IMG/VR virus record: IMGVR_UViG_3300045988_107814
Span: 64,001-128,000 of that record
DNA length: 64,000 bases
Direction: 5' to 3' (one strand)
Source: a virus
Both the position numbers and the translations under genes were made by a program. Within the stretch, counting starts at the first letter, position 1. Every line of letters begins with the position of its first letter. Of this stretch, positions 25,170 to 53,496 are shown piece by piece. The notes beneath the pieces are model-generated. The model worked only from the letters and a program-made list of their open reading frames with translations, made no database searches and had not been told where the DNA came from.

Positions 25170-28100
25170 ATGGCTGTTTCAGTACAGAAATATATGAAGA
25201 ATATGATAAAATCTGTGGCGTATGGTACGTCAGATGTTTTATCTGAAAAATTTGAATATGTTAGGGACTTCAAAGAAGAAAATCAAGAAGTCTTTAAAGA
25301 AGCATATAGTGCAGTAAAAGATTATAAAAACACATATGCTAGAATCAAAAAAGCTATAGTAAATAATAAAGTAATGGATGCAGCTAGAATCGGTTATGAT
25401 TCTATGTTATATAGTATTACAACAGGCGATTTCTATGCAAAATCTAAAGAAGCCGAAGTAATGGATAAATATGGTGGTGATATATTAGACGGCTTTGATG
25501 TAGATAATGAAGATTTTGATTGGGATAATGAAGATTTATCTACTGGAGATAAAGTTATAGCTACAGCTATTAAAAAAAATGGCAAAGTTGGAACTGCTCT
25601 AACCATTGAAGCTGTTTCTCAAACTGGAAAAGCACAAATGGATGTAGCTAAAGAAAATACAATGTTATTATATACTCAAAATGAGCGTATGTTAAATAAA
25701 CTTGATACTGGATTTACTAATATAATGGGATTCTTAAAACAAAATGGAGAACAAACTGCTAAAATCCAGAATCAAATGAATGATAACTTAAATAAATTTA
25801 TGACTCATGTAGATAATAATGTAGAGAAATTAACTAAACAAATGGACGAATTACTTCAAATGCAAAGAAATATATATAATGGTCCAGAGCAAAAAGAGAA
25901 AAAACATAAAATAGGATATGATGATATTATAAGTAATAAAGGCGTTATTAATATAAAAGAATATGGAAAGCAAATTAAAAAACAAGCATTTGAAGCTGCT
26001 AATAATTTATCAGGTGGAATGCTAAGTCAAATGTTTGGAGAATCTATAAGCGGATCTAACTTATTAGCTACAGCAGCATCTACATTACCAAGAGATATAT
26101 TAAAAGGTATGATTAACAAAGCTCTCGGTGCTAAATTTGATCAAGCTGCCAAAGAATTAGATACAACTCTACAAGGAATTATTCCAACTCTAATGTCAAA
26201 GGCTAATGCTGCCGGTAGAGGAGATAATAAAATATTAAGTTTCTTAGGAAAAATATTTGGTATTAAAGATAAAAAGAATGAAAAAGTAGAAACTGATAAA
26301 TATAATAGAGGTGCTATACCATTTGATGGAGTGACTAAACGTGCTATAACAGATGTAATCCCATATTATTTGAGAAAGATGACAGCCTCTATGACAGGTA
26401 AACCAGAAATGGTATATGATTATCAATCTGGTAGATGGACTACTATGAGAGGTATTAAGCAAGAACATGAAAAAACAATGACAATGGCTAAAGATAGAAC
26501 AACCGGATTATTATTAAATATACTAGAAAGTAATATGGGTGGAAGAAGAATAAGCGATTCATTTAAAACAAAAGACGAATATGATAAATTTATGAAAGCT
26601 CTTGAATCCTATTCTAGTAGACTGTTATCAGCTGGTGATTTTGGTTCTATAAAAGAATCTGAATTAGATAGTAGTGCTCAAGAAGAAATTCATAAAGCAT
26701 TACGATATGTAATGAGATTAGATGATGATACTGGAAAAGATAGAAGATTTACTAAAGGAGCTAATGGCAAAAAAACAAGTTCTGGACTTGGAAGAAGTAG
26801 TATTGGTTCTTTATCTACTATATTAAGAGAATATAAGAATGCACAAAATGCCGCAATTAAAGCTATCAATGACGGCGATTCTACATTAAGATTAATTAAT
26901 GCAGAAGGCCTTGACAGAATAAGTTATGAAAGTTATTCTGATAAAGCGGGTGCTAATAAATATGGAGATTTAGATCAAAGATATATTCAAGATCTTCCAA
27001 TAACACAAGTATTATTAAGAGGCAAAGATGAATACGGTGTATCTATGTATCAATATTTAAGAGACATGGGTAAGAGTTTAAGATTTATTAAAGCTAATTC
27101 TGTATATCTTGCTGGAATTAATGGTACTGGTATAGGAGATGAATTATCAGAAGAAAAATGGAAATCCATATTTGAAAGTAATGGGTCTGGCGAAGGATTA
27201 TCTTATTCTGATGATAAACCTGCTAAGTATGCATTAGAATATTATAAGGAACAACACAAAGAAATTAAAAGAAAAGAAGAAAAAGGTTATGAATCTAGAA
27301 TTGCAAGAGCAAAAAATAGAGCCGAACAAAAAGGCGAATCTTTCTATGTTGCTGATGATTTTTATTCTTTTTCTTCTAAAGACGGTAAAACAGGTCTTAA
27401 AAAAATTATAACTACACAAGAAGAATCAAAAATAGCAAAGACAATTAAAGAAGAAGAAAAGGAAAGATTAAAGAAAGAAAAAGAAAGATGGGCTAATATA
27501 ACTGACATTGTTGGAGAAGATAGTGCAAAATTATTAAAAGATGCATCCGATGATTTTGATAGTTCTGAATCATTAAGTAAAAATATGAGTAAAGTTAAAG
27601 ATAAAGGCTTTGCTGCTAATTTAATGATGTTTGCTAAATGGGCTACTAATAAAGTGGGTAACCCAGCTAATGCGGCTGCTGATGCTGTTATAAAAGTAGA
27701 TTATTGGTTACAAAAATTAATTTATGGTGAAGATTTAAAAAGTGATGATAAAAAGACAGGATTTTTTACAAGAGTAAAGGATTCAATTAAAGATGGGTTT
27801 AAAACAGTAACTGATAAAATTCAAGAAGGATTTGATACTCTTAAAGAAAAACTGAAACCACTTAAAGAAAAATACTTGGATCCAATATTAGAAAAAGTTT
27901 CTAATACGTTATTTGGTACAAAGGATGGAGATGGTATTAGAAGTGGCGGAATATTAGGTGGTTTTATAGGAGGAATTCAAAAAGGTATAAGAAAAAATAC
28001 AGCGGATGTAGAAAGATATGCTAAAGAAAAAGCTAAAAAATTTGGTAATAAAGCAAAGCAAATTTTTAATATAAGTGAAGAACCAAAAGCAACTCCACCT

Positions 28101-31100
28101 AAACCTGAACAGAAAAAAGTAGAACCTCTTACAGTTCTTACACCAGGACAAGTTAAATTTAAAGAAAAAATTCAAAATACTAAAGATCAAATATATAAAT
28201 TAAGAAGTGCTATAAGTTCTAGTATGAAATATATAAAAGAACTAGAGGACAAAATTTCATATATAAGTGATGGTCTTAAGACATTTAGTAAAAAGAATGT
28301 AGAATATTATTCAGAGGAACAATATAAACTTGACAAACAAGAAAGAACAGCGTATCAAATTCAATTAAATGAAGAAAAAGCAAAATTGAAAAAATTAAAA
28401 AATACATTAAGCAAAAAGATAAAAACATACAATTCTATGGTAAAACATGCTCTGTCTATAGGTATTAATGATTTTCAATTAATTGATGAGAATGGTGCAG
28501 ATGTTAAAACAATGGCTGTTGGTGGTGTGAATAAAACTGGCAAATCATTCCAATCTGTATTATCTGCTGGTGAACTTCATAATGGTGTACCAGTAAGATC
28601 TATGGGTATATATACCATTAATCCTGGTGATACAGTTGTTAACCCAGCTAGTGCATCTACAAGATCTAGACAAGCTAGAGCAGAGAAAAATTATCTAAAC
28701 AATATTAAACGAAACGCTGAAGCTAACCAAAAGCTATCTCCAGATGAACAAGTTCCTAGTGAAACAGAACAAAAAGAAGATCCAAATAAATTTGCTGAAT
28801 TAATGACAAATAAAGACTGGACAGAATTAACTGATAAGAAGCAAAGAGCTGAATTCTTAGGAAATGTGGCTAGTAGAGGTCTTATTGGCGGTGGTCTTGG
28901 TCTGTTAGTAGGTGGTCCTTTATTAGGTGCTGCTGTTGGTGCTGCTTCTTCATTAACCAAATCTACCGATGCTTTCTCAAGTCTGCTATTTGGCGACGCT
29001 ATTAAAGATAAAGATGGTAATGTTCAAGTTGATGAAGATGGTAAAATTGTTAGATCAGACAATGGTCTTATTTCTAAAGAAATTATGAAGGCTATGCCAG
29101 ATGTTAAGAAGTTTGGTATTGGTGGTGCTATTGCAGGTCTCATCACCCCTCTAGGTCCATTAGGTGGTATTCTAGCAGGTTCAGCATTAGGATTTGCAAA
29201 AAACTCTGAAATATTCCAAGGTTCTTTATTTGGTGATGGTGGTATATTCTCTGATAAGAATGTAAATAAACTTAAAAAAGGTGCTAAGAATATTGGTGCT
29301 GGTGCTATTATCGGTGCTATTGCTATGCCTGGTCCTTTTGGTTTATTAGGAAATGCTCTTATTGGTGCTACAGCTGGCTATATAACTTCTACTGACAAAT
29401 TCAAAGATGCTTTACTTGGCGAAAAATCTGATCCTAATGATCCAAATAGTAAACGTCAAGGTGGTATTGTTGGTGGAATTAAAGATGCTTTACGTCCTAT
29501 GAAAGATTTCGGTCTGCATCTACGTGATAATATTATGGATGAAATCTTTGGTAAGGATGAAGGCGATGGTCGTAAGGGTGGACTATTTGGTGCTATTAGA
29601 GATAATATGGTAACTCCTATTATCGAAGGTGGTAAATCTGTATTCCAAACTTTGCAAAATAATGTATCTGATATGGCTCATCTATTAGGTGATGCTTATA
29701 AAAAATTTAGAGCAAATCACGCTGGTAATGATTTCTTTGGTGGATTAATTGAAAAAGCAGATAAACTTACTGGAGGTGCTATTAAAGGTGCTGGTTCTAT
29801 TGGTAGGGCTATGACTAAACCATTTAGACTTTTAGGTGACGATGGTATTGGTGGAATGCTTACTGCTAGACGTATTAAAAATGGTACAGAAATAGGTAAA
29901 TCTGCTACGCAAAGAAATATATTTAGAACAAAACATAACCTAGGCATAGGTGATAAATATGCTAAAGCTGACCAAGTAATGGCCAACATGTCTAGAGAAG
30001 ATCTACTAATGGCTCAATCATTATTAGAATTTGGCGACAATACTGATATGATTGATCAGGCTAGAGATAATGACTATGCTATTTTAGGTCAAGAATTAAG
30101 AAAGAATCTAAATAGATCAGATGCTAAAAAAGTTATTAAATTAATAAAAGATGGTAATATTGCCGAAGCACAAAAATTTGCTAGAACTAGAAAAGTATCT
30201 GATGATTCAAAGAAAAATGTAGAATCCTTAATTAGTAATCACCAATATAAATTAGATCAGTATAAGAGTACTAAAAAGAGAATTGAAAGTCTTGGTAAAG
30301 ATTCTCAAACTATTTTAAAAGATTTGGGGTTAAAAGTAGATACTAAAGATCCAAAATCTGTAAGATATTTAAAGAAACAATTGTCTAAAGAAATTGCTCA
30401 TCAAGATGCTGGTTTAACTGATGAAGAAATAGCATTTAAAAAGCAAGAAGAAATGTGGAAAGGTAAAGATTCTCCATTAACTGTAGTTAATACTGGTGTA
30501 ACAACTGTTGTAGAATTATTACAACAGATTAAACTTGGTAATGAATATGACAATCTTCCTGCTAGTGAAAAAGCAAAATACTCTAAAACTGAATATATTA
30601 ATTCTCATAAAACTACAGCTGATACAGAAACACAAGTTAAGAAAACTGCTGTAGGAAAAGGTGTACAACCATCTGTAGCTGTAAACCCTCAAGCTAACTT
30701 ATATAAGAAAATGGAAGATATTAAAAATGAAGAATATATGAAGTCTCTAAAAGAAGTATCTGATAGAGGTGTTAAAATTTTCAACAACTTAGTTGCAGAA
30801 GATTTAAGAGATCCAGAAAAAATAGAATTCGATATAGCAGCTCAATATAGTGTGTCTGAAGATGGTTCTGATGGTAAACCAAAATATGAACCAAATAAAA
30901 AGTTAATCCGTAATATTAAAATTACTAGATTTAAAAAGACATATGAATTCGATGTTACCTATACATGTAATGAAAAAGGTGATGTTTCATTAACTACTGA
31001 TCAAGAAGAAACATTTACTATTGCTAGAGATTCTTTTGTTAGTGAATATATGAGAAAATTCATTCCTAAAGATCGTAAAGAAATAATTAAAAATATGAAC

Positions 31101-34100
31101 TTTGGTGATATGATTAGAACTTCTGTTAAGGCTGCTGGAATAATTGCTATTGCATCTGTAATACCTGGTGGTATCTTTGCAGTTGGTGGCTTTAAACTTG
31201 CCAAGTCTATTAATAAACATTTCGATCTTACTGGAAAAGCTAAACGTCTAACTAAAAAAGGTATTAATAAAGTATCTATGGGTGTTAAGAATAAGCTAGG
31301 TTCTCATGACTTAGATATGCAATCTAGACACCAAAAGAAAAAAGAAAAGAAATATAATAAGAAAGCTAATAAAGCATTAAATGAAGCTATAGAACACAAC
31401 GATCCTAGACTTGATCAAATTGCTCAAGAACAATTTGGACAGAATTATGCTGATCTAGAAAGAAAGCAAAAATATACAGTAAATGATATATTTAGAGAAG
31501 AGGTTAAAAACGAAAAAAGATCTTGGCAAGCTTCTGGTCATGGTTTAGTTGGTAATATAAAAGCTATTGGTAAAAATATGGGCACACTTAAAACTAAAGC
31601 ATTTAATGCAGCCAAAGCTCTAAAAGAAAAGGAACAAGAGAAAGATAACTTTATTGGTAAATTCTTTAATAAATTAGACAAATGGAAAATTAAAAATGAT
31701 AAACGTAAATTTGAAGGCAAGTCCAATCCATTAACTAAAATAATTAAATGGTTATTTGTTGGTGGCATTGCTACTCCTATTCTTGTAGGATTTGTTAAAG
31801 ACAAGATTATGCCAGCAATACATGATAAGATTCAACCATGGTTAAAGAAAGCTGGAGAAAAGATAATTGGTAAAAAGAATCAACAGACTGGTGAATATGA
31901 AGGCGGTATTGTATCTGGTATAGTAAATCCAATTAGAAACTTCTTTAAAGATAAATTCCAAACTATACACGACTGGTTCCATAATGATGGTAAATTTACA
32001 AGTAATGATACTGGTTTTAAAGGCTTCTTAGGAAACTTTGTAAATGTATTTAAGTATGGTGTAAAACTATGGCAAAGTGGTGCTAATACAATTATAAATG
32101 ATGTATTACCTGGATTTGTAGAGGCTATTGTTTCTAAGTTACCAGATATATTAAAATCTGTAGGTAAAGGTATTGTTGATGGTATTGCTTCTTGGTTTGA
32201 TAAGAAAGATGGTACTGGTAAACAATCTCTTGATAAAATTGATGGTTCTATGGTATCTGGTGGCGGTGGTAATACTAGAGCAAATACGAATACTGATAAT
32301 TCTACAATAGAGTTTAATAACACTGTAGGTGGAAAATTCTCTATGGAAGCACCTAAATACATGGGTTCTGGACCAGATTATAGTAGTATTCAAGTAAATG
32401 ATGCATTAGCAGATACATCTCAAACAAAGAATAAAGATGGTACTACTACAATAACAAATAAAGATAATGGTAAAAATGTTACTACAGAAAAAATTAATGA
32501 TGACGAAATGGTATCTGCTGGTGTTAATGCATCTGGAACAGAAATTTTCTATAAACTTTCTGATACAAATAGAACTCAGCCATATTCAAAAACAGGTGAT
32601 GGCCAATATTTAAGAATAGATAATCAAACAGATGTAATGAATAATACATTACAAGATAATACAAGTTTTCAAGAAATGATTGAAAATGATAATGCCGGTA
32701 ATGCTGGTGTTACAAATTCTTATACTGGCACAACTCCTGGATTAGATAATGCTATTAAAGGAACTAAAATCGGTGTTAAAGCACTCACTTCTAAGTCTGG
32801 TGCTAAAGGTCTTACACTGGCTCTTAAAGCCGGTGGTAAAACTATTAAAACAGTTGGTAGAGTTGCTTCTATTCCTGTTGGTGGTAAACGTAGTATAGCT
32901 GGTAAAGTAATAACTAAAACAACTAATGGATTAGGAAATATTGTAGAAAAAGGTGCTGATAAACTTTCTAACGATATATTTAATGTAGGTCAGAAAATAA
33001 CAAACAAAGCATTATCAAAGAGTAAAACACTACAAAAAGTAAATGAACTAGGATTAAAGATAAATGATTCTTGGATGAATAAATTCGGACATGGTCAAAA
33101 TAAACTAGATGCACTTGATAGAAGTATTGATAGAGCACTTGAAAAAGGTGATACTGCTAAAGCAGAAAAATTATTAGACAAAGCTACTAAAGTTGAAGAT
33201 AAAATAAATAATGGAAATGTCTTTAGTAAATTTAAAGATAAGGCTACTTCAAAAGTTAAGAATAGTAAAGCTGGTCAAGCTGTTACTAAAGTTAGCGAAG
33301 GTGCTAAAAATATAAAAACAAAAGCTAAAGATGTTGTTAAGAAAACTAAAGTAGGACAAGCAGCTACAAAAGTTAAAGGCGTAGCTGATGATGCTGTTAA
33401 ATCTGTAAAAGGAATATTCGAAAAAGCTAAAAAGAGTATAGTAGACTGGTTTAAGAAATTATTTAAAAATGGTACATTTAAGAAAGCACTTAAAGAAGCT
33501 GGTCAAGAAGCAAGTGATGAAGCTATTGAAAAAATGGCTAAAGAATCTGGTGAAAAACTAGTTAAGGAATGTGCTGAAGAGGGTGCTGAAAAAATTGCTA
33601 AAGCAGCTGGTAAGAATGCTATAGCAACTGCATCTGATGCAACTGGTATTGGTGTTGTTATTAATATAGCAATGGCTGTAGCAGACTTCGCACTGGGTAT
33701 GGATGATTGCAGAAACATTCTTCAAATAACAGATAAAGAAATTCCTATATCTTGGAGAATATTTGCTGGTCTTGCTAATGCACTTCAAGATATTCCAGCT
33801 GTAGGTATCATATTCGGCATTATCGGTGCTAAAAATATCGTTTATTTCTTAATTGATATTCTAGGTCCTATTATTGCTCCTGATGCAACCAAAAAGATAA
33901 GAGAAAAACAAAAACAAGCTGAAGAAACAGTAGCTGAATATAATAGACAACATAATACAAATCTTACATTAGAAGAATATAATAATAAATTTAATAAAAC
34001 TTTCTCTAGTGTTACTAAGGGATTAGCAGCCGATGCAGGTTCTTTCTTATCTGGTAGAGATGCTACAGTATCTCAATCAATGGAGTCTAGACGTATTGTT

Positions 34101-37100
34101 GAAGATGCCGGTAAAAAAGTAACTAAAATAAGAAAGAAACTAGAAGATATTGCTTCTCATATGTGGGAAAAAGAAGGTAAAAAGTTTAAAGGCTTTAATC
34201 TTACTAAAGAAACATATGGTACATTATGTGCAGAAGTAATTGATAAAATTGTAATGTTGCTAAATGGTTTAGATGAAGATAAATTAGATAAAGTTTTAGA
34301 ATCTGCTGGTAAAATGAGAATGAACTTTGCTGAAAATTATGGTAGTGGATATGTTAAAGTTCTTACATTTGGTGCTGTTGATTTGGACCCATTTGTAGAC
34401 GCTTGGGATGACGGTTATAAAGGTTTGTCATACTTAGGTCTAGATGAGGATAAATTTGAAAATACAGACGTGGTTAAATGTATTGGTGGTATTGCATCTG
34501 TATTTGTAAAATCATGTGGCGGTGCTAAATTAAAAGGAAAAATCATTGATATAGTAATTACTACATTCTGTAAGGGAATGTCAGCTGATGGTAAAAAAAT
34601 TGGTGAAAATGAAAAGAAAATGATAGAAGAAAGCGGTAAAGATATAGAAGAAATAAATAATCAATATACAGCAGTTCAGCAACAATTTAAAGAAGCTGGT
34701 CAAGCTCAATCAGTTGCTATTGATTCTAACGGTAATGTAACTACTGATAATATTGTAACAAATGCAAATGCTAATAATAAACTTTCTACTACCAATACTT
34801 TACAAACAGCAACTTCTCCATTAAGTAAAATCAGTAATAAATTTTCTGAAATTATAAATAATGCAGTTGGTGGATTTACTGGCGGATTAGATAATATTGA
34901 AGAATTGTTTAAATCTTTATCTAGTAAAAATAAGAGTACTAATGAAGCAATTGATGCTATGACACTATTACCAACTGATAAGAAATATTGGAAAATAGAA
35001 TTAGATAATACGAATCCATTTGTTAGTGCTATATTTAACTTTATGGAATCTATGAACAGAGTTGTTAAAGCTCCATTTGCATTAGCAGCAGCTTCTCTAG
35101 GTAGTGGTCTTGAAGTTATTTCTAGTAACTCTGCTGATAATGGTGGATCTGCTCAAACTGTAAATGATTCTAGTGGTAATACTGGAAGTTCAACAGCTTC
35201 TACTAATAATGCTTCTTCTGGTTCTACATCTTCTAAGAGTAGTGGAGGATTCTTAAGTAAAGTAGCAAGTAAAGGTAAAAGTATATTAAAGAAAATTGGT
35301 GGTGCATTTAAGAGTCTATTTGGTAGAGGTGCTGATGATGAATATACCGATGATACAGGTTATGGTGATGATCCATTCCATATTTATCAAAGAGACTATA
35401 AGAGATCATATAAAACAAATGGTGATACAGAAAATCAAACAGTAGCAGATTCTGGTTGTGGCCCAGCCGCAGCAGCTTCTCTATTAAGAATGTATGGTAA
35501 AAACGGTAATATGAATAATGCTGTTAGTTATGCACTTAATAATAACTACAAGGAAGTAAATGGTGGTACTTATCCACAATACTTCAATGATTATCTAAAT
35601 AAAAATGGTATTAGTACTAACTCTAATGCAAATAATAGAGATGTGGTAAATAGTCTTATTCATAATAAACCAGTTATATTAATGGGTCAAGATGCATCCA
35701 ATAGTGGTAGAACTCCATATGGATCTAAGTATTCTCACTATGTCGTTGCTAGAGGACTTGATTCTAATGGTAATGTAATAGTAGAAGATTCTGAAGATAA
35801 AAAGGGTTCTACTAGATATAGCCTTGCTGATACTTTAAGAAATTCTTCTGTAAGAATTACTACAGGTAGTGGAAAATATGGCAGAGCTAAAGGCACTGTG
35901 TTAGATAACTTTGTTAGTGGTGTTAACTCTGTAATGGCTTCTTCTGTTACAAGCATCTTAGGCAACTTATCTAGCAGTATAGGATATAGCGATAGTAGTA
36001 GCGGTAGCACATCATCTAGTGGTAATACTGGTAGTAGCGGTGGTACTGTTATCGCTGGTACTAATGGAACAATAAGTGATCTAACAAAAGACTCCGATGT
36101 TAAAACAAAATGTGGTTATACAGCTGAACAATTAACAGCCGCTATTAAAGCTATACATCCAGAAGGTTGCTCTGCTGAACAATTCCCAGAAGCAGCTATT
36201 AATGTAGAAAAATCTAAAGGTCTTAATGCATTATTTATAATTGCTGCTGCTATTCAAGAACATGGATGGGATGGTAAAGTTGGTATTAATACAACAGGTG
36301 CTAACTGGGGTAACTGGAATGTATTTAATATTATGGGTAGTCCACATGCTTCTAATGGTCGTTGGAAAGACTATAATGATCTTACTGATGCATTTAGTGG
36401 ATTCGGTGATCTTATTCTAGGTAGCACTTATTATGGTGCTGGATTAAAAACGCCTGAAGCGATTGGTAATAGATATTGTCCTCCAGATTTAGAAGAAAAT
36501 GCAAATTACGGTCAATGGGGCGAATCAGTATGTAATGTTGCTCAAAATATTGTAAAACACATTCCTACTTCTGGATCTGGTCGTGGTAATAATAAGATTG
36601 AACCAGCAATAAATAAAAAATTAATAAATAATATTACAGACTCTATTAGTTATGGAACAGTATCTGCTCTTAATGGCGGATCTGGTAAATGGGGTCGTGA
36701 TGGTGAAGAAGATACAACAACCGCTGATGATACCACAACAACAGATACTTCAACAGAAACAACTGATAGTACTACAACTACTACTAATACATCATCATCT
36801 AGTTCTAGTAGTGCTTCTGAATCTGCTGGATTATTAAGTAAACTAACTGAATATACAACTAATCTTACTAAGGGTGTATTTGGAGATTTTTACGATGCAT
36901 TATATGGTAAAACAGAAACAAGTACAACCACACCAACATCTGGTAATACTATTACTGGTACATTATCTTCTGGTGATTCAATTGCTAATATGAAAACCTT
37001 ATTTAGTTACTTTACATCTCAAGGATTAAGTGATAATTTAGCTGCCGGTATTCTTGGTAATATTAAAGCTGAATCTGGTTTTAATCCTAACGTATTATAC

Positions 37101-39161
37101 GGTGGTGCTATTGGTACTGTATTTGATCAGCAATCATTAGCATATGGTCTAATTCAATGGACAGGTACTGATGCAAGAGCTAGCTTATATAACTGGTGTA
37201 CTGCAAATAACTGTGATCCTGATACACTGGATGGCCAAGCTAAATGGATTGTTGCTCAAATTAAAGGTATAAATCTAAACGATGAAACAAATACTGCTAA
37301 TGCTTCTAAATTTAATGGTAGTACTGGTAGAGGTACTATGACATATAATGCTCAATTATTTAATGCTAGAGGTTCATTTGAAACATTTAATACTTATTCT
37401 ATAGAAAAAGCTACAAAATTATGGCTAGAATGTGTAGAAAGACCTGGTGATGTAAATAGTTTCTTACAAGCTAGAGTAGAAAATGCTAAGCAAATACTTG
37501 CAGAATGTAAAGGAACTAGCAGTGGTTCTGGAAGAGGTAGAGGAATAATTAATAAAGCTTTATCTAAACCTAATAAACTAAGAAAGAGAAGATTTGGCAG
37601 AGGTATTTGGGGTCGTGATGGTGAAGAAGAAACAACTACCACTACAACAACCACCACAACGACAGAAGCAGCAGATACTTCTACATCTGAAGATGAAAAT
37701 ACTGGTGTAACATATAGTAGTCCTATAGGTCCAACTAAACCAGATAACTCTACTGATGATACTACAACAACCAATGATTCCGATACAACATCGAGTACAG
37801 GTAGTAATGGTAGTGATACTCTATTAAGTAAACTTACAGATTACGCTTCTAAAGCTGTTAAGGGAGTATATGGTGATTTCTATGACGCATTATATGGATC
37901 TGATACATCTTCCAATGAATCTGATGCTTCATTATCTAATGTAACTGGAAATAGCACTATAACTCAAGGAACTGGTGTGCCATATGAAACTTATAAACAC
38001 TGGAAACAAGGTGATTATGGAACATATCCAGCACCTTGGGCAAGTAAGAACATTGCAACTGGTGGGGGATATGATACATGTGCTGATAGCGGTTGTGCAC
38101 TTGTATCCTCGGCTATATTATTAGTACACTCCGGATCTATAACCGATAGTTCATTTGACCCTGGTGTATTTATTGATGACGTTGTTGCAAGAGGAGCTAC
38201 AAATTATAAGGGTGAATGGTCAAGTCTAGATACATTAATGGATTATAAAAATTCTGGTATTATGACAGGTGTAGATTATCAAAAATGGTGTTTTGGTCAA
38301 GACTTCACTCAATCTGCATCTTGGGATACTATATATAATACATTATTAAAACAACTACAAGATGGTTATTATGTAATGATACGTGTATCTATTCATGGTA
38401 CTTGTGGTCACTTTGTAGCGTTAGATTATATTGATACGTCTTCTAAAACTATCTATATAATGGACCCTGGTTCATCTCATAAAGAAAATTTAACTGATTA
38501 TTCTGGAAGAATTCTTGGTTACGCAACATTTAAAACCAATGCATCTAATGCTAGTCAATATATTTTAAATGGTAAAAGAAGTGGCTCTGGTAGAGGTAAA
38601 TTTAGCAAGAATACATCTTCGTTTACAGGTAGAGGAAATGATAATAAATATACATTTGCTAATATTAATTCTTCTGTAAATAAGAGAATTGGTAGACAAA
38701 TGATGAAATATACTAAACCTGAGCATTTCTATCCACCTACTGGACAAGGAAGAGGTGTATCTGGTTTAGTAAGTTATGATCAAATTAAAAATAACACAAA
38801 GTCTACTTCTACAACATCAATGACTACTCCTACTAATAACAATAATCAAATAATTGCTTCTAACAATTATATTGGTTCAGCTTCTACTATCGGAACTTCT
38901 TCTGGTGGTAACGGTATAGATTTGAATCAATTAATTAGTTTAATATCTATTATAGCAAACAATGCTGATAAGATGGATGCAATATTACAGTTATTAGGAG
39001 CCATTGCAACTAATACTCAAAATACATCTACAGCTATTTCAAATAATAATAAATCTAAAACAACAAATAATAACGGTCTATCTGCATTGAGAAATGCATT
39101 AGATTCAAATAGTTCTGGAATAGATATTGCAAAAGCAGTTTATCAAATAGCAAAAAGTTAA
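25170..39161 (+). CDS. giant virion-associated multidomain protein (tape-measure or ejection-protein-like) with four C-terminal peptidoglycan-hydrolase domains
   Basis: A 4663-aa uninterrupted ORF in AT-rich DNA, with a GAAAGGAGG RBS and a terminator.
- The N-terminal two thirds are K/E-rich and helical, with Gly-rich hydrophobic segments (28878-29385, about 31130-31200, about 31745-31800, about 33640-33880).
- C39-like Cys peptidase 1: ADSGCGPAAAASLL, Cys at 35457; SHYVVARG, His at 35735.
- GH73-like glucosaminidase: AIQEHGWDG...NVFNIMG, about 36110-36560.
- Phage-tail-lysozyme-like domain: LAAGILGNIKAESGFNPN...YGLIQWTG, about 36990-37500.
- Cys peptidase 2: ADSGCALVSSA, Cys at 38094; GHFVALDY, His at 38408. 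Confidence 0.85.
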   Translation: MAVSVQKYMKNMIKSVAYGTSDVLSEKFEYVRDFKEENQEVFKEAYSAVKDYKNTYARIKKAIVNNKVMDAARIGYDSMLYSITTGDFYAKSKEAEVMDKYGGDILDGFDVDNEDFDWDNEDLSTGDKVIATAIKKNGKVGTALTIEAVSQTGKAQMDVAKENTMLLYTQNERMLNKLDTGFTNIMGFLKQNGEQTAKIQNQMNDNLNKFMTHVDNNVEKLTKQMDELLQMQRNIYNGPEQKEKKHKIGYDDIISNKGVINIKEYGKQIKKQAFEAANNLSGGMLSQMFGESISGSNLLATAASTLPRDILKGMINKALGAKFDQAAKELDTTLQGIIPTLMSKANAAGRGDNKILSFLGKIFGIKDKKNEKVETDKYNRGAIPFDGVTKRAITDVIPYYLRKMTASMTGKPEMVYDYQSGRWTTMRGIKQEHEKTMTMAKDRTTGLLLNILESNMGGRRISDSFKTKDEYDKFMKALESYSSRLLSAGDFGSIKESELDSSAQEEIHKALRYVMRLDDDTGKDRRFTKGANGKKTSSGLGRSSIGSLSTILREYKNAQNAAIKAINDGDSTLRLINAEGLDRISYESYSDKAGANKYGDLDQRYIQDLPITQVLLRGKDEYGVSMYQYLRDMGKSLRFIKANSVYLAGINGTGIGDELSEEKWKSIFESNGSGEGLSYSDDKPAKYALEYYKEQHKEIKRKEEKGYESRIARAKNRAEQKGESFYVADDFYSFSSKDGKTGLKKIITTQEESKIAKTIKEEEKERLKKEKERWANITDIVGEDSAKLLKDASDDFDSSESLSKNMSKVKDKGFAANLMMFAKWATNKVGNPANAAADAVIKVDYWLQKLIYGEDLKSDDKKTGFFTRVKDSIKDGFKTVTDKIQEGFDTLKEKLKPLKEKYLDPILEKVSNTLFGTKDGDGIRSGGILGGFIGGIQKGIRKNTADVERYAKEKAKKFGNKAKQIFNISEEPKATPPKPEQKKVEPLTVLTPGQVKFKEKIQNTKDQIYKLRSAISSSMKYIKELEDKISYISDGLKTFSKKNVEYYSEEQYKLDKQERTAYQIQLNEEKAKLKKLKNTLSKKIKTYNSMVKHALSIGINDFQLIDENGADVKTMAVGGVNKTGKSFQSVLSAGELHNGVPVRSMGIYTINPGDTVVNPASASTRSRQARAEKNYLNNIKRNAEANQKLSPDEQVPSETEQKEDPNKFAELMTNKDWTELTDKKQRAEFLGNVASRGLIGGGLGLLVGGPLLGAAVGAASSLTKSTDAFSSLLFGDAIKDKDGNVQVDEDGKIVRSDNGLISKEIMKAMPDVKKFGIGGAIAGLITPLGPLGGILAGSALGFAKNSEIFQGSLFGDGGIFSDKNVNKLKKGAKNIGAGAIIGAIAMPGPFGLLGNALIGATAGYITSTDKFKDALLGEKSDPNDPNSKRQGGIVGGIKDALRPMKDFGLHLRDNIMDEIFGKDEGDGRKGGLFGAIRDNMVTPIIEGGKSVFQTLQNNVSDMAHLLGDAYKKFRANHAGNDFFGGLIEKADKLTGGAIKGAGSIGRAMTKPFRLLGDDGIGGMLTARRIKNGTEIGKSATQRNIFRTKHNLGIGDKYAKADQVMANMSREDLLMAQSLLEFGDNTDMIDQARDNDYAILGQELRKNLNRSDAKKVIKLIKDGNIAEAQKFARTRKVSDDSKKNVESLISNHQYKLDQYKSTKKRIESLGKDSQTILKDLGLKVDTKDPKSVRYLKKQLSKEIAHQDAGLTDEEIAFKKQEEMWKGKDSPLTVVNTGVTTVVELLQQIKLGNEYDNLPASEKAKYSKTEYINSHKTTADTETQVKKTAVGKGVQPSVAVNPQANLYKKMEDIKNEEYMKSLKEVSDRGVKIFNNLVAEDLRDPEKIEFDIAAQYSVSEDGSDGKPKYEPNKKLIRNIKITRFKKTYEFDVTYTCNEKGDVSLTTDQEETFTIARDSFVSEYMRKFIPKDRKEIIKNMNFGDMIRTSVKAAGIIAIASVIPGGIFAVGGFKLAKSINKHFDLTGKAKRLTKKGINKVSMGVKNKLGSHDLDMQSRHQKKKEKKYNKKANKALNEAIEHNDPRLDQIAQEQFGQNYADLERKQKYTVNDIFREEVKNEKRSWQASGHGLVGNIKAIGKNMGTLKTKAFNAAKALKEKEQEKDNFIGKFFNKLDKWKIKNDKRKFEGKSNPLTKIIKWLFVGGIATPILVGFVKDKIMPAIHDKIQPWLKKAGEKIIGKKNQQTGEYEGGIVSGIVNPIRNFFKDKFQTIHDWFHNDGKFTSNDTGFKGFLGNFVNVFKYGVKLWQSGANTIINDVLPGFVEAIVSKLPDILKSVGKGIVDGIASWFDKKDGTGKQSLDKIDGSMVSGGGGNTRANTNTDNSTIEFNNTVGGKFSMEAPKYMGSGPDYSSIQVNDALADTSQTKNKDGTTTITNKDNGKNVTTEKINDDEMVSAGVNASGTEIFYKLSDTNRTQPYSKTGDGQYLRIDNQTDVMNNTLQDNTSFQEMIENDNAGNAGVTNSYTGTTPGLDNAIKGTKIGVKALTSKSGAKGLTLALKAGGKTIKTVGRVASIPVGGKRSIAGKVITKTTNGLGNIVEKGADKLSNDIFNVGQKITNKALSKSKTLQKVNELGLKINDSWMNKFGHGQNKLDALDRSIDRALEKGDTAKAEKLLDKATKVEDKINNGNVFSKFKDKATSKVKNSKAGQAVTKVSEGAKNIKTKAKDVVKKTKVGQAATKVKGVADDAVKSVKGIFEKAKKSIVDWFKKLFKNGTFKKALKEAGQEASDEAIEKMAKESGEKLVKECAEEGAEKIAKAAGKNAIATASDATGIGVVINIAMAVADFALGMDDCRNILQITDKEIPISWRIFAGLANALQDIPAVGIIFGIIGAKNIVYFLIDILGPIIAPDATKKIREKQKQAEETVAEYNRQHNTNLTLEEYNNKFNKTFSSVTKGLAADAGSFLSGRDATVSQSMESRRIVEDAGKKVTKIRKKLEDIASHMWEKEGKKFKGFNLTKETYGTLCAEVIDKIVMLLNGLDEDKLDKVLESAGKMRMNFAENYGSGYVKVLTFGAVDLDPFVDAWDDGYKGLSYLGLDEDKFENTDVVKCIGGIASVFVKSCGGAKLKGKIIDIVITTFCKGMSADGKKIGENEKKMIEESGKDIEEINNQYTAVQQQFKEAGQAQSVAIDSNGNVTTDNIVTNANANNKLSTTNTLQTATSPLSKISNKFSEIINNAVGGFTGGLDNIEELFKSLSSKNKSTNEAIDAMTLLPTDKKYWKIELDNTNPFVSAIFNFMESMNRVVKAPFALAAASLGSGLEVISSNSADNGGSAQTVNDSSGNTGSSTASTNNASSGSTSSKSSGGFLSKVASKGKSILKKIGGAFKSLFGRGADDEYTDDTGYGDDPFHIYQRDYKRSYKTNGDTENQTVADSGCGPAAAASLLRMYGKNGNMNNAVSYALNNNYKEVNGGTYPQYFNDYLNKNGISTNSNANNRDVVNSLIHNKPVILMGQDASNSGRTPYGSKYSHYVVARGLDSNGNVIVEDSEDKKGSTRYSLADTLRNSSVRITTGSGKYGRAKGTVLDNFVSGVNSVMASSVTSILGNLSSSIGYSDSSSGSTSSSGNTGSSGGTVIAGTNGTISDLTKDSDVKTKCGYTAEQLTAAIKAIHPEGCSAEQFPEAAINVEKSKGLNALFIIAAAIQEHGWDGKVGINTTGANWGNWNVFNIMGSPHASNGRWKDYNDLTDAFSGFGDLILGSTYYGAGLKTPEAIGNRYCPPDLEENANYGQWGESVCNVAQNIVKHIPTSGSGRGNNKIEPAINKKLINNITDSISYGTVSALNGGSGKWGRDGEEDTTTADDTTTTDTSTETTDSTTTTTNTSSSSSSSASESAGLLSKLTEYTTNLTKGVFGDFYDALYGKTETSTTTPTSGNTITGTLSSGDSIANMKTLFSYFTSQGLSDNLAAGILGNIKAESGFNPNVLYGGAIGTVFDQQSLAYGLIQWTGTDARASLYNWCTANNCDPDTLDGQAKWIVAQIKGINLNDETNTANASKFNGSTGRGTMTYNAQLFNARGSFETFNTYSIEKATKLWLECVERPGDVNSFLQARVENAKQILAECKGTSSGSGRGRGIINKALSKPNKLRKRRFGRGIWGRDGEEETTTTTTTTTTTEAADTSTSEDENTGVTYSSPIGPTKPDNSTDDTTTTNDSDTTSSTGSNGSDTLLSKLTDYASKAVKGVYGDFYDALYGSDTSSNESDASLSNVTGNSTITQGTGVPYETYKHWKQGDYGTYPAPWASKNIATGGGYDTCADSGCALVSSAILLVHSGSITDSSFDPGVFIDDVVARGATNYKGEWSSLDTLMDYKNSGIMTGVDYQKWCFGQDFTQSASWDTIYNTLLKQLQDGYYVMIRVSIHGTCGHFVALDYIDTSSKTIYIMDPGSSHKENLTDYSGRILGYATFKTNASNASQYILNGKRSGSGRGKFSKNTSSFTGRGNDNKYTFANINSSVNKRIGRQMMKYTKPEHFYPPTGQGRGVSGLVSYDQIKNNTKSTSTTSMTTPTNNNNQIIASNNYIGSASTIGTSSGGNGIDLNQLISLISIIANNADKMDAILQLLGAIATNTQNTSTAISNNNKSKTTNNNGLSALRNALDSNSSGIDIAKAVYQIAKS
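36689..36908 (+). repeat. intragenic linker module, copy 1 (WGRDGEE, Thr/Ser-rich tract, LLSKLTEY..GDFYDALYG)
   Basis: Begins with the 23-nt string tggggtcgtgatggtgaagaaga, which is identical at 37608-37630. It has the same protein architecture as copy 2. Confidence 0.85.
37608..37898 (+). repeat. intragenic linker module, copy 2 (WGRDGEE, poly-Thr, LLSKLTDY..GDFYDALYG)
   Basis: See copy 1. Includes a run of eleven Thr codons. Confidence 0.85.
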
Positions 39162-39251: not shown

Positions 39252-41513
39252 ATGGCTTACAATTATGTATACCCACTAAATATGAATAAGATAGCGGAAA
39301 CATTTTATGCTAAAAAAGCAAGCGATCTATCTAATAGTGGATTTTATATTATGTGTAAAACTGATACTAATATTTATGCATCTAGTGAAAAAGCACTTGC
39401 AAATGCAAATGTAACAACAGAAACAGATAAAGCAATGATGAGAATAAAAGGTAAATCGTCTGCTAAAATATATGATGTAGTTAAAGATCATAATAGAATA
39501 TTGGTTAAAATATACGCAGGTGCTAAAGAAGCTTGGTTATATATTGGAACAGTACAAGCATATGGTAGTTCAACAGGTAGCTATTATAGATGGACAGTTG
39601 GCCCTACAGTTAATATAGGTGCAACGAAAAATTGTCTTAAAAAATTTAATATAAGACGATTTAAAGAATCAAATACACCTAATAGATATGCTAATTTAAA
39701 TTTAAGTGTAACAGAAATAGATGCTAGTAGAGTATTGAAAACAAATCAAAGCGAAATAGATGGTGCTGATAATAATACTGAAGAAAAAAGAACAAATACA
39801 ACAGATAATATAACTAGTACTAGTACAGCAACTGGAGAATCTGGAGTAACATATGAATTTGCTGTAAAGGCTGCTCCAAATACTTACTATTATGATATTG
39901 GTAAGTATATAAGAGATAACTCTTATGAAGCATATGCATCTCAAAATAATATAAATTCTGGCATTGATTATAGTAAACTTAAATATATTTTTGGCATTCC
40001 ATATCAATATCTTCCTACAACAGATTGTAGAGTTGGGGATGATTTCTCAGATGAAATAGAACAAGCTGGATATGAATTTGCTGACAAAATTATATCTAGA
40101 ATGCCACTATTATATGTAACTCCAGGTAATACATCTTTTATGGGTAATGCCGGTTCTAAAGAAAATTACAGAACTTTTTTACTTGGTAAATTAGGTGTAA
40201 GCGGTGCTACATCTGGAGAAAATGATATAATGGAATCTTCTCTAGAAACTATGCTTGGAGAATACAATGGTAAACTATATACATTAACTCCAGCATATAA
40301 AGAATATTTTGAATATGTAAATCCATTATGTCGTGCTGGTGCAATATTCTTAGATATTGGAGAATTATCATTTGAATCTGAGACAACAAGTGGAACTAAT
40401 AAATTTCAAAACTATAACTGGGGTATTAACCAAGGTATAGCATATGAGATATATACCGAAGAAGAAAGTACAGAAGATGATACTAAAAAAAGTGATACTA
40501 AAGATGAGGAAGAAAATACAGATAATGCAGATGGGAAAAAGGCTAAATTTGATGAAGATTATTCTGATTTCTTTGAATCTACTATAACCAAGATCAGTGA
40601 AAAAATAAGTGATTTTGAGAGTAGATTATATTACGGTAACTCTATAGCTTTCTATATAAATTCCGATGCATCGTTTCAAGATTCTTTTGGTAATGAAACA
40701 ACAGAATCTTCTTTATCTTCTCTTATAAATGGTTTATCTGATAAAGCTAGAGAAATACAATTCTTATTGGGCACTTCTAGACAAATGGTTGGTGAAGCAT
40801 TTGATAAAGTAGACGGTACTCTTGGTCCAATAAAACAGCAAATTGATAATATAGTTAATAAAGTTGCTGGTGGTAACTCTATATTTACTACAATTGCAAA
40901 TAGTGTTAAAACTATTGTTTCTGGCGGTAGGTTACAATTTCCACAAATATGGTCTAATAGTTCTTTCTCAAAATCTTATAGTATATCTATTAAATTAAAT
41001 ACTCCAAGTACAGATAGAGTTTCTTGGTGGTTAGATATATATGTGCCACTTTGTCATCTTATGGGATTAATTCTTCCTAGATCTGAATATATTAACTCTT
41101 ATACTACTCCATTTATTGTAAAAGCATTCTATAAGGGTATGTTTAATATAGATATGGGCATTATAACAGAAATGACATTCACTAAAGGTAAAGAAGGCTC
41201 ATGGACTAAAGATGGCTTACCTACTGTAGTCGATGTAAGTTTCACTATTCAAGACTTATATAGTACGATGTCTATGACATCTACAGAAAGTATGTTTAAA
41301 GGAAAAACATTACAGAATGTAGCTGAGATGGATTATATAGCAAACTTATGTGGTATTAATATAAATGAGCCTGATATATTTAGAATGATTAGATTATGGT
41401 GTGTATTCAATATTTCTAATAGAGTATACGACTTTATTCCTAACCTTGAAATGGGAGTTGAAAAGTATATTGGTAATAGAGTATTAAGTGCTTATAATAA
41501 TTTTTGGTTTTAA
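39252..41513 (+). CDS. hypothetical protein (probable virion protein by position)
   Basis: 753 aa, with a TAAGGAGG RBS. It immediately follows the giant gene. Confidence 0.75.
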   Translation: MAYNYVYPLNMNKIAETFYAKKASDLSNSGFYIMCKTDTNIYASSEKALANANVTTETDKAMMRIKGKSSAKIYDVVKDHNRILVKIYAGAKEAWLYIGTVQAYGSSTGSYYRWTVGPTVNIGATKNCLKKFNIRRFKESNTPNRYANLNLSVTEIDASRVLKTNQSEIDGADNNTEEKRTNTTDNITSTSTATGESGVTYEFAVKAAPNTYYYDIGKYIRDNSYEAYASQNNINSGIDYSKLKYIFGIPYQYLPTTDCRVGDDFSDEIEQAGYEFADKIISRMPLLYVTPGNTSFMGNAGSKENYRTFLLGKLGVSGATSGENDIMESSLETMLGEYNGKLYTLTPAYKEYFEYVNPLCRAGAIFLDIGELSFESETTSGTNKFQNYNWGINQGIAYEIYTEEESTEDDTKKSDTKDEEENTDNADGKKAKFDEDYSDFFESTITKISEKISDFESRLYYGNSIAFYINSDASFQDSFGNETTESSLSSLINGLSDKAREIQFLLGTSRQMVGEAFDKVDGTLGPIKQQIDNIVNKVAGGNSIFTTIANSVKTIVSGGRLQFPQIWSNSSFSKSYSISIKLNTPSTDRVSWWLDIYVPLCHLMGLILPRSEYINSYTTPFIVKAFYKGMFNIDMGIITEMTFTKGKEGSWTKDGLPTVVDVSFTIQDLYSTMSMTSTESMFKGKTLQNVAEMDYIANLCGININEPDIFRMIRLWCVFNISNRVYDFIPNLEMGVEKYIGNRVLSAYNNFWF

Positions 41514-43798: not shown

Positions 43799-43811
43799 TT
43801 ATTAATATGTT
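43799..43811 (-). promoter_or_regulatory. candidate phage promoter, AACA-N3-TAWTAA class
   Basis: The minus strand reads AACATATTAATAA. It overlaps the stop of the 1473-aa gene and lies 21 nt before the ATG at 43777. Confidence 0.3.
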
Positions 43812-46800
43812 TAAGAGGTTACTACACGTATGTTTATATACGGTGTACCATCCAAATCATCTGTATCTACATGCAAGAATTCTGGAACCATAGATAACAT
43901 TTCCATATTCTCAGTAGATATAATATGCTGATTAATAGCATCATAAATATTGAATGAAACGAATTCAAAATAAATAAGATATTCAGCAAATTCAGATTCT
44001 ATCATAGTAGTAATGTTCGGGAAGTGGATATCATCTAATTGATCAAGTTTCTCAAGATATCCCTTAATACTATCCTTAATATTAGTTATAATGCTAGCAG
44101 CATCGCTATCTTCATTATAGAACTTAGCTCTAAATGTCATAGTCAATGCAACGTTATCAATCAACTCTGTTGTAGCATCTCCATCATCATCTGTCAAGTG
44201 ATACATATTAGATGGGCCGTAAGTATTGAAGAACTTATAATCTAAACCAAATGTACATTCCAATGGAGAAATAGCATCAAGAACATAGTTAATCTTCTTC
44301 TTCATTTCTTTAATAAATGTATTAACTCTTTCTTCAGTATTCCAATAAAAATATCTTACACAAGGTACTCTATTAATAATATAAGATTCAATCTGATCAT
44401 TAGCAGGACTAAAGATATCATTTGTCTTAATAGAAGTCACATAAGAATTCATTATATTAGAATAGTCATATAGTAAGTTAATACCCTGATAAGTACTATA
44501 TACATTTGTCAATACCATCTGTCTTAATGTATAATTATCAATATATCCAGATTCTTCTTTCTCTACAGGAATAGTCATAGTAAACTCAGTATTTTGCGGT
44601 ACAGAATTATATAGAGATTCAGACTTAGAATTATTAATAGCTACATATTGACTTGTTAATCCATCTGTATATGTCTTAGGAGTTGGAATATCATACTTGT
44701 ATAAAACAAATATCTTCATTTCAGTGTTTAGATTTAAATAAGCACTAGATGCATAGAATTTGGATCCTCTTAAATTATCTAACCAACCACTCTTAAGCAT
44801 TTGATCATAATCTACAGGACGAGCATTATTAGCATCTGTATAGAAGCATCTATATCTTTCATAGAATAGCTTCTTTGCTTCTTCTGTATTTAATGGATCA
44901 TCTCCACCAATCTCATTAGCAATTTCATCCAATACTTCTTTTACACCAATATAAACATCGTTATTATCATCTATAATATCAGTAATATCTAAATCTTTAT
45001 CTTCTTTAGATGATGTGGTAAATGGTCTAGAATACAAATTAACTTCATATGGAATACCATTTGCAAAATCATCATCACCAGTAGTAGATCCAACATACTG
45101 AGCAATAGAATACATTATTGGTTTGGAAGCCGTATTATTTTTACCTTTCTTATAGAATACTGCAATTACTTGAGTTCTATTGATCATATTATTATCTATA
45201 GATCCGGTGTTTGGTTTTAAGTTTATACTAATTGTATACTTATATCTATTATCAGACAGATAAGAAGTTCTACAAGTTTTAACACTAGGAAGAATAAACT
45301 GTACTGGAGATTTACTATTAATACAATCAAATTCTTGATATCTTGTTTCGTTAATAATATCAAGATAATAGGATGCTGTAATTCTATGAGAATCTATCTC
45401 AGCATTATCTTTAAGAACTATACTTAATGGTGTAGTATATAAGAACTTAGTTATCTTAGATATTAGCACAATATAAGTACTGTCGAAATTCTTTTGATCA
45501 TCTGAAATGCTAGGAATAATATATCTATAGTGAGCAAGATCACCAATTTCAGTTTGTTCATTTACCATAACTTCTATACTTATAATCTTGCCATCATTCT
45601 TTTCTATAGATAATACTTCACCTAAAGTCCAAGTAGACGGATCTTTATAATAGAAACTTGAATTTATATCAGATCCATTATAAGTACTAAATCTAATCAA
45701 GTCCCCTTCAGTTAATGTCATAGAATCGAAGTTATATTTACCCTGACCATCATAAGAATACACATCAATAGTATTAATAGAATCTAGAATTAACCATGTA
45801 TTACTACCACCGTTAATATATCTAGATATAATATTGTTATAGAACGTCTCTATATAGCATATTTTATTATCATAACTTAAAGATCTTATATCTGTAAAAT
45901 AATCAGGTACCCAGACATTTCTATTAATATTCTCTGGATTTAATACAGTTACAGGTGCTTCAGAGAATTTAGTTGTCGAATCTACAAATGATATATTTGT
46001 ATACCAAAGATAGAAATTAACATTAATATCAGTTGTATTATTACCACTTACAATAAGATCAAAAGGTATGTCTATTACACATTTATTTTCTTTATCTACT
46101 ACATTTCCAGAAGTATCAAATACTCTTGGTCTATAGAATCTTACGGCAGTAATAAGATCATCATATTCAGAATTAACTTGTATAGATGATACGGTATATT
46201 TATAACTTCCATCATCATTAGTAGTTCGTACTAATCTTACAGTTAGATATTTACCATTTTCTGAATTAGGGTCATCAGATATTACTCGTCCACTAGTAGA
46301 ATTTTCGTATACGATTACTTTAGCAGCAGATAATTCAGCTACATCTCTCTTTGGAAAGTGAGTAGTGGTTGTTATACTTCCATTTACTTCTTTCCATTCT
46401 ATTTCCAAATCATGAATATCCATATAGTCAGATCCCATAGGAAAGAAAGTTAATAATAATGTGTTTAGAGACATCTTCACATTACGAAGATTACAATTTC
46501 TACATGTACCATAAAACCAATTATCATATAATTCTTCTTTACTAGGCTGCATATTCTTTATATTTTTAGAATAGAATGGTTTAAAATATACAGAAGAATT
46601 CTCATGAAAATCATAAGATAATTCTGGTTTCTTTGTTTTATATTCAAAATCAGGAATATCTAACTCATGTTCAAAAGATGTTCTATATGGTGACTTAGCC
46701 CACATAGCCATACTTTCATCAGTGGGTGTTCCTTGATAAGTTGTATAACCATCTACGTCATAAAAAGAATAGTTTGTTTCTACATTAGATACTTTCTGTT

Positions 46801-50100: not shown

Positions 50101-50134
50101 CAGATGTCGTTAGTTGATATACTTTATTTTTTTG

Positions 50135-50148
50135 AACATTCCTATAAA
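50135..50148 (+). promoter_or_regulatory. candidate phage promoter, AACAT-N3-TATAAW class
   Basis: AACATTCCTATAAA lies 22 nt before the ATG at 50171. Confidence 0.35.
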
Positions 50149-50170
50149 ATTCGAACAAGGAGGTAAAAAT

Positions 50171-51730: not shown

Positions 51731-51754
51731 ATTATAGAAAGGAGGTTTATATAA

Positions 51755-53476: not shown

Positions 53477-53496
53477 TATAAGAAAGGAGTTTAATA

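Follow-up and report, generated by a model that had tools for sequence, protein, structure and literature searches.

A widespread family of giant jumbo-phage proteins with exchangeable predicted cell-wall hydrolases, a constant C39-type peptidase domain and candidate processing junctions

We analyzed a stretch of viral DNA of 64,000 nucleotides (positions 64,001 to 128,000 of the IMG/VR record IMGVR_UViG_3300045988_107814; hereafter "the window"), which encodes a giant protein of 4,663 amino acids in a single open reading frame (ORF). The C-terminal ~1,280 residues of this protein hold an array of four enzyme domains, each trailed by a glycine-rich junction motif, and all the features listed in a preliminary description of the window fall within this ORF (Table 1). 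Searches for relatives revealed a large family in which, as the comparison of its members strongly supports, domains are swapped between relatives while the junction elements and the C39-type first domain remain constant. The single most likely specific mechanism, and the one we prefer, is a putative self-processing of the chain at these junctions by the C39-type domain; our confidence in it falls short of even, since every step beyond the anatomy is inferred.

The muralytic activity of the array is predicted from its domain assignments, and the proposal that it comprises four peptidoglycan-hydrolase domains fared unevenly. Domain 1 is well supported as a C39-type cysteine peptidase. The only Pfam model it passed was Peptidase_C39_2 (PF13529; E-value 4e-14, residues 3426-3541); against the classical C39 model PF03412 it scored 18.6 bits, under the 22-bit cut-off. 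The core of its AlphaFold2 model has a predicted local distance difference test score (pLDDT) above 90, and its top Foldseek matches are a papain-like cysteine-protease toxin (9l5u), PCAT1, a CdiA-CT toxin and ComA, with LahT ranked lower and the pseudomurein endoisopeptidase PeiR at rank 20; the Foldseek probability is 1.00 against PCAT1, ComA and LahT. Its catalytic set consists of Gln3423, Cys3430, His3523 and Asp3540, all four invariant in a ten-sequence alignment (A2), and 132 of 133 full-length family representatives have an intact Cys, His and Asp. Cys3430 lies at nucleotide 35457, as first described, and His3523 occupies nucleotides 35736-35738, the originally given 35735 being the end of the preceding codon. 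Domain 3 is equally well supported, as a lysozyme of the phi29 gp13 type: it matched Phage_lysozyme2 (PF18013) with an E-value of 1e-26 (94.2 bits against a 28.2-bit cut-off, residues 3940-4110) and the phi29 gp13 structure 3csr in the PDB with an E-value of 3e-5.

The remaining two domains are less clear. The assignment of domain 2 as a GH73-like glucosaminidase is weakly supported: the Pfam Glucosaminidase model PF01832 gave an E-value of 1.6e-4 and 22.7 bits, under its cut-off of 30.2, and a profile built from five homologues matched the GH73 domain of FlgJ in the PDB (E-value 1.3e-4) over a region that covers a conserved, glutamate-containing QEHGW segment. Domain 4 is probably papain-like and fits no family. 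Its Cys4309, His4414 and Asp4432 are invariant in four homologues of 39-90% identity (alignment A1), and an hhalign comparison with domain 1 placed Cys, His and Asp in register (E-value 0.002, probability 14%). It had no Pfam match, no assignment from a PDB profile search or from Foldseek against PDB and BFVD, and a poor AlphaFold2 model (pLDDT 60). Cys4309 was correctly placed at nucleotide 38094 in the preliminary description; His4414 spans 38409-38411, one base past the 38408 given there. The suggestion that domain 4 is a second conserved protease did not hold up, as closer relatives carry a different Cys/His domain at that place.

The recurrence of a glycine motif after each of the four domains proved real, with the motifs at the positions first reported, and we identified a fifth site, SLFGRG, before domain 1. 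The general form of the junction element, which is strongly supported, is G-x-G-K/R, often followed by aromatic-G-K/R-G; in the clade of the window protein it reads SGSGRG, a basic spacer (~15-30 residues in junctions 2 and 3) and WGRDGEE. We compared motif counts in the C-terminal 1,287 residues with the mean of 2,000 shuffles. SGSGRG occurred three times versus 0.001 in shuffled sequences, GSG[RK] five times versus 0.15, G.G[RK] eight times versus 1.3, and WGRDGEE twice versus 0; not one of the 2,000 shuffles equalled the observed count for any of the four patterns. The first 3,376 residues of the giant protein contain no GSG[RK]. A combined junction pattern (G.G[RK] or aromatic-G-[RK]-small) matched every other ORF of the window at most once (0 or 1 match) and the major capsid protein not at all, and this specificity also holds against the other ORFs of two related contigs, L001 and L002. 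A role as a general head-maturation site was rejected, since the motif is missing from the capsid protein and the neighbouring structural ORFs. The sites within the gene use differing synonymous codons, which points to selection and conservation at the protein level. In the AlphaFold2 model of domain 1, the motif-bearing flanks are disordered beside the confident core.

These elements are arranged in cassettes, in each of which a short helix and a Ser/Thr-rich linker lead to a cell-wall hydrolase domain, with a junction element after it, a layout that is strongly supported. WGRDGEE is followed by an acidic Thr/Ser-rich linker, then a conserved helix and then the next enzyme, in the case of domains 3 and 4. 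The helix that precedes each of these two domains, LLSKLT.Y.....KGV[FY]GDFYDALYG, was also found ahead of enzyme domains in the homologues P0005, P0007, P0016 and P0038, and only a subclade (26 of 133 representatives) has its YGDFYDALYG form.

Searching with the C-terminal 1,287 residues recovered 21 metagenomic proteins, on contigs of up to 259 kilobases (kb). Their domain sets vary and include SGNH/GDSL, Amidase_2, M23, NlpC/P60 and second lysozyme domains, and they retain the junction elements and the C-terminal tail of the window protein. The last domain, for example, differs between the window protein and P0003/P0004 or P0005/P0007. In homologues of 33-45% identity the motif trails C39, GH73, lysozyme, SGNH, amidase_2 and M23 domains alike, and among seven proteins with Pfam coordinates it stands after 19 of 23 domain ends, 9-52 residues away and before the next domain. 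The preliminary description had proposed conservation of the motif in homologues as a check, and the motif is indeed kept, at these identities and domain ends as well as on both sides of the C39 domain in about 90 of 132 representatives, as detailed below. The stand-alone metagenomic protein P0015 (717 residues) is informative in this respect: its GH73-like domain is 65% identical to domain 2, it has no other array domains, and it reads HISESQSS where the giant protein has HIPTSGSGRG. The same fold thus occurs without the motif, which argues that the motif belongs to the array rather than to the domain fold.

To this variable set the C39 domain is the exception. It is the sole enzyme domain kept by every homologue scanned and the most N-terminal one in most homologues examined (P0019 and P0045 are exceptions). 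When a profile of this domain was run against 1.84 billion representative proteins, 2,623 matches reached E <= 1e-3 and 440 reached E <= 1e-30, so that at the stricter threshold the family comprises at least 440 clusters at 50% identity. Among the best 150 matches, nearly all are 3,000-6,056 residues long, with the C39 domain about three quarters along the chain. Family members have four to six array domains, the window protein having four, and none of the ten members whose records were checked bears a functional name. In a set of 133 full-length representatives (pairwise identity below 50%), motif density is 6.9 per 1,000 residues from the C39 domain onwards versus 1.6 per 1,000 residues N-terminal to it, and in a histogram of motif positions, sharp peaks border the C39 domain on its two sides and a further peak follows the next domain. 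The motif lies within the 50-residue flank of the C39 domain in 90 of 132 proteins upstream and in 91 of 132 downstream, compared with ~8 of 132 for control windows. The family consensus is G-[S/Y/F]-G-[K/R]-G, with YG[TM]G or GSGSG in distant members; agreement of the variable residue of aromatic-G-x-G within each protein gave just a weak signal (0.177 versus a permuted mean of 0.144), which we regard as uninformative.

Some contigs carrying family members have peculiarities of their own. On L002, a 92-kb contig of a related phage, the giant protein is encoded by two adjacent genes (4095-9968, 1,957 residues; 10001-15511, 1,836 residues) separated by 32 bases (9969-10000), and the split point is not at a junction motif. 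An apparent split or frameshift of the giant gene in L001 was rejected, being a scaffold gap of Ns. Contigs of 212-245 kb that encode family members (within the set L005-L008) had been binned to metagenome-assembled genomes named Bacilli bacterium and Eubacterium sp.; they are probably whole phage genomes mis-binned into bacterial ones, from gut and rumen samples. Shorter family contigs (5-9 kb) had been binned as Succinivibrionaceae and Spirochaetaceae. As these bin names conflict, they were not used to assign a host.

The gene set of the window, including a split polymerase, an RNA polymerase beta subunit and head and tail genes, places the phage among the phiKZ/AR9-related jumbo phages. Downstream of the giant ORF lies a virion protein of 753 residues (39252-41513), with homologues in phiKZ-like, Erwinia, Goslar, Staphylococcus and Bacillus jumbo phages, and then a RusA gene. 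The same order is found in the AR9/PBS1-like Bacillus phage BpSp, as gp263 (1,797 residues), gp264 and a Holliday junction resolvase. In Erwinia phage RAY, the homologue of the 753-residue protein, gp161, comes after gp162, a "lysozyme domain protein" of 2,239 residues that we take to be the equivalent of phiKZ gp181. In a BLASTP comparison whose database held two sequences only, residues 1-435 of the giant protein matched BpSp gp263 with an E-value of 1e-13, and no significant similarity to RAY gp162 was found. Gene order and N-terminal homology thus strongly support the prediction that the giant ORF corresponds to the giant cell-wall hydrolase found in virions of phiKZ/AR9-type jumbo phages. 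The phiKZ protein gp181 is a structural muralytic enzyme located at the baseplate (PMC5380687). The window protein resembles phiKZ gp181, RAY gp162 and BpSp gp263 in lying upstream of the gp182/gp161/gp264 homologue and close to RusA and tail genes, in its giant size and in having muralytic domains near the C-terminus. It differs in being about twice as long and in carrying four enzyme domains of other families, whereas the known proteins have a single lysozyme or transglycosylase domain.

Several traits of the giant protein recall a tape measure: its great length, the location of the array at residues 3400-4470, a conserved C-terminus, and seven glycine-rich hydrophobic segments in its N-terminal two thirds (residues 1237-1263, 1317-1342, 1375-1398, 1981-2011, 2188-2210, 2817-2847 and 2864-2903). 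The extreme C-terminus (...M[NT][AS]IA..) is kept across distant family members. These traits are suggestive and not defining, and the whole protein had no Pfam or PHROG tape-measure match. Given the gp181-type position, the hydrophobic segments and the conserved C-terminus, we read the protein as a putative tail-associated, ejected protein resembling a tape measure.

Table 1. Features of the giant ORF and other genes of the window (window coordinates).
Feature	Position	Strand	Basis or remarks
Giant ORF, 4,663 residues	25170..39161	+	ORF list, translation
N-terminal conserved region, residues 1-435	25170..26474	+	Collinear BLASTP match to BpSp gp263, residues 9-406
Span with seven glycine-rich hydrophobic, membrane-segment-like stretches	28878..33878	+	Kyte-Doolittle, 19-residue window, score >1.4
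Helix before C39 domain, ending in junction site 0 (SLFGRG, residues 3381-3387)	35232..35333	+	Disordered in AlphaFold2 model
FGRG of junction site 0, residues 3384-3387	35319-35330	+	
Domain 1, C39-type papain-fold cysteine peptidase, residues 3402-3565	35373..35864	+	Pfam, AlphaFold2, Foldseek
Junction 1, GSGKYGRA	35865..35888	+	Directly after last strand of domain 1; disordered in AlphaFold2 model
Domain 2, GH73-like glucosaminidase (weakly supported), residues 3640-3800	36087..36569	+	Pfam PF01832 below cut-off; FlgJ profile match
Junction 2, bipartite	36570..36710	+	SGSGRG (36570-36587), basic spacer, GSGKWGRDGEE (36678-36710)
Helix before domain 3, AGLLSKLTEYTTNLTKGVFGDFYDALYGK	36825..36911	+	
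Domain 3, phage tail lysozyme, phi29 gp13 N-terminal type, residues 3940-4116	36987..37517	+	Pfam PF18013; PDB 3csr
Junction 3, bipartite	37521..37628	+	SGSGRGRG (37521-37544), basic spacer, FGRGIWGRDGEE (37593-37628)
Helix before domain 4, DTLLSKLTDYASKAVKGVYGDFYDALYGS	37815..37901	+	
Domain 4, residues 4270-4466, Cys4309/His4414/Asp4432	37977..38567	+	Alignment A1
Junction 4 and trailing sites	38580..38756	+	SGSGRGK (38580-38600), TGRGN (38625-38639), GQGRG (38742-38756)
Conserved C-terminal tail, ...LSALRNALDSNSSGIDIAKAVYQIAKS	38937..39158	+	BLASTP matches to 10 homologues
Family B DNA polymerase, part 1	4150-6192	-	Matches PHROG DNA polymerase families
Major head protein	13026-15104		
HExxH ORF, 402 residues, directly after major head protein gene	15194-16402	+	LHEVGH at about residues 110-115; PHROG 2767 (unknown function)
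Multisubunit RNA polymerase beta subunit	19415-21637	-	
Family B DNA polymerase, part 2	22409-24508	+	Pfam divDNApol and DNA_pol_B C-terminal part
Tail-tube-like protein	48255-49571	-	Pfam Phage_TTP_15

The array includes a protease-fold domain whose active site is intact, and one motif recurs at the boundaries between modules, among them the two that border this domain. A boundary motif that recurs whatever the domain, and that lies on either side of a protease fold whose catalytic residues are intact, is what usually marks a self-processing polyprotein. It is this pattern, together with two precedents, that leads us to take processing by the C39-type domain as the most likely mechanism. The first precedent is the tail-associated lysin (Tal) of phage TP901-1, in which the junction ahead of the catalytic domain carries a glycine-rich motif where processing takes place (PMC11409707). 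Tal of TP901-1 and Tuc2009 resembles the window protein in being a virion tail protein with cell-wall-degrading domains and such a motif right before the catalytic domain (PMC11409707). It differs in being a tail-tip protein of 918 residues from a small siphovirus, with a single processed site (NGGGNSGGGD) that lacks basic or aromatic residues and with no embedded C39 domain, and its cleavage removes the lytic domains rather than separating many. The second precedent comes from polyvalent proteins that phages inject, in which embedded peptidases are predicted to autoprocess the chain (PMC5512222). Polyvalent proteins and MARTX toxins share with the window protein a very large delivered chain, exchangeable enzyme modules and one constant protease-fold domain. 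MARTX toxins are processed by an internal cysteine protease domain, and we know of no report of a comparable recurring junction motif, defined by its sequence, in polyvalent proteins. The modules of the window protein are all predicted to target the cell wall, whereas theirs have disparate intracellular activities, and the protease here is C39-type rather than a zincin or the MARTX-type cysteine protease domain.

Under the preferred reading, the protein would be carried inside the tail or along with it, attached to the tail tip by its conserved C-terminus, and would be ejected ahead of the DNA. The glycine-rich hydrophobic segments might help to cross the membrane, and the hydrolases would open the cell wall. 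The junction elements would be specific proteolytic processing sites, with the embedded C39-type peptidase as the likeliest enzyme, cutting on its own two sides and after each downstream domain and so releasing or unlocking separate hydrolases. Such processing could take place at assembly or, more plausibly, after ejection. The full generalization, namely that widespread giant tail proteins of jumbo phages are virion-delivered self-processing polyproteins in which an invariant C39 domain cuts at G-x-G-K/R and frees an exchangeable hydrolase cocktail where infection takes place, is a bolder claim, and we consider it rather unlikely. Nothing relevant emerged when the full-text literature was searched for the motif string or for processing of gp181.

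A number of observations weigh against self-processing. C39 peptidases such as ComA, PCAT1 and LahT favour glycine beside the scissile bond, and the classical members of this group cut GG, GA or GS sites after an amphipathic leader. Domain 1 shares with them its fold and its Gln/Cys/His/Asp set, but it is not fused to an ABC transporter, sitting instead at residues 3402-3565 of a phage structural protein, and the conserved core of the candidate sites is G-x-G-K/R or aromatic-G-K/R-G, with x variable, rather than the classical site. The motif is at times tandemly expanded, for example as KYGRGKFGRSKLGR in P0018. PeiR, one of the fold matches of domain 1, acts on the cell wall, and the C39-like N5 domain of mycobacteriophage LysA is a presumed cell-wall peptidase (PMC3314691). 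Conservation of both the N- and C-termini of the whole chain suggests assembly as one unit. The known relatives BpSp gp263 and RAY gp162 do not have the junction motif. Neither the enzyme array nor the capsid protein has a close relative among GenBank phages, where no cultured relative was found. Moreover, P0045 and, independently, P0020 and P0021 are without the Cys-bearing half of the C39 domain, yet keep motifs. The deletion (at about residues 3270-3420 in P0045, 1314-1466 in P0020 and 1358-1496 in P0021) is in-frame and begins right after the upstream junction motif, leaving the His/Asp half and the flanking motifs in place; P0045 has nine motifs in 781 residues, and P0020 and P0021 have few. 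These remnants may represent a recurrent pseudo-protease variant.

The main rival explanation, which we regard as a serious possibility if a somewhat doubtful one, is that the chain stays uncut: the junction elements would be basic, aromatic glycine pieces serving as docking sites or hinges, and domain 1 would be the endopeptidase of a cell-wall-degrading cocktail. In variants of this explanation, the motifs might order the enzymes within the tail lumen or at the tail tip, or might bind anionic envelope polymers after ejection. The use of C39-like domains as lysin peptidases (PMC3314691) and the presence of PeiR among the fold matches both speak for it, as do the motifs that remain beside the Cys-less remnants. 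Mycobacteriophage LysA is a close parallel, being a modular, shuffled lysin in which a C39-like (N5) peptidase comes first and glycosidase or amidase domains follow (PMC3314691); LysA proteins differ in that they are small, soluble, late-made endolysins that lack a junction motif and do not belong to a virion protein. The tandem aromatic-G-R-G units and the conserved basic spacers of 30 residues resemble binding elements more than minimal cleavage sites, and the conservation of both chain ends fits a protein that works as one piece. However, the 3,376-residue stretch expected to occupy most of a tail lumen has no such motif. Where the motif does occur, it is confined to domain boundaries irrespective of domain type and borders the protease fold on either side, as is usual for polyproteins.

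Cleavage of the junctions in trans, by a phage maturation protease, by the HExxH protein encoded beside the capsid gene or by a host envelope protease cutting after Gly-Arg/Lys, is an improbable explanation in our estimate. It would account for the motifs kept in members that lack the C39 nucleophile, and the core of G-K/R plus a small residue suits enzymes that cut after a basic residue better than it suits C39 specificity. On the other hand, neither the capsid protein nor any other structural ORF of the window contains the motif, which argues against the head-maturation protease, and no serine protease gene was found in the window. The HExxH protein had been put forward earlier as a candidate protease; the motif itself (LHEVGH) is present in this ORF, but the protein matches no protease family, with no Pfam match and a sole PHROG match of unknown function. 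That the motif is a by-product of cassette shuffling, with conserved linker DNA acting as a recombination point and no function in the protein, is very improbable even though domains are clearly swapped at these boundaries between close relatives (the window versus P0003/P0004 and P0005/P0007), because sites of one gene differ in their synonymous codons and the peptide motif survives in over 100 clusters at protein identities of 33-45%, a range in which nucleotide identity has disappeared.

Other genes of the window offer further observations. Its G+C content is ~30%, and it also encodes a helicase and several "virion structural" proteins. The family B DNA polymerase is apparently encoded by two genes on opposite strands, with ~16 kb between them. 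An ORF of 1,473 residues (43811-48232, minus strand) that matches PHROG 18960, of unknown function, adjoins the tail-tube-like ORF; the two may be a sheath and tube pair, in a position matching that of BpSp gp268-gp269. Seven consecutive ORFs of 391-573 residues, all on the plus strand, occupy positions 50114-60280. The first two match PHROG "virion structural protein" families and four of the other five match nothing; this run may be a structural module of the baseplate or fibre.

Giant virion hydrolases of jumbo phages, multi-domain tail lysins and the glycine-rich processing of Tal are already known. What is new here is the scale, with four to six domains in proteins of 3,000-6,000 residues, and also the grammar of the cassettes, the C39-type first domain that stays constant and a junction motif kept in hundreds of clusters. 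Our analysis defines a large family that bears no functional name in the records checked, with proteins of 3,000-6,000 residues on contigs reaching 170-260 kb. The grammar of helix, linker, hydrolase and junction motif provides a ready rule for locating domain boundaries, and each domain, its limits already defined, is a natural candidate for enzybiotic engineering. Should the junctions be cleavage sites, they would form a sequence-defined processing code, to our knowledge the first for a tail or ejection protein of a phage. Self-processing would further mean a new substrate specificity for the C39 fold and a phage counterpart of MARTX-type toxins, and would show a route by which several lytic enzymes can be delivered from one gene. 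Even if the chain is uncut, the strong conservation of the motif in disordered linkers points to an as yet unknown interaction in jumbo-phage infection.

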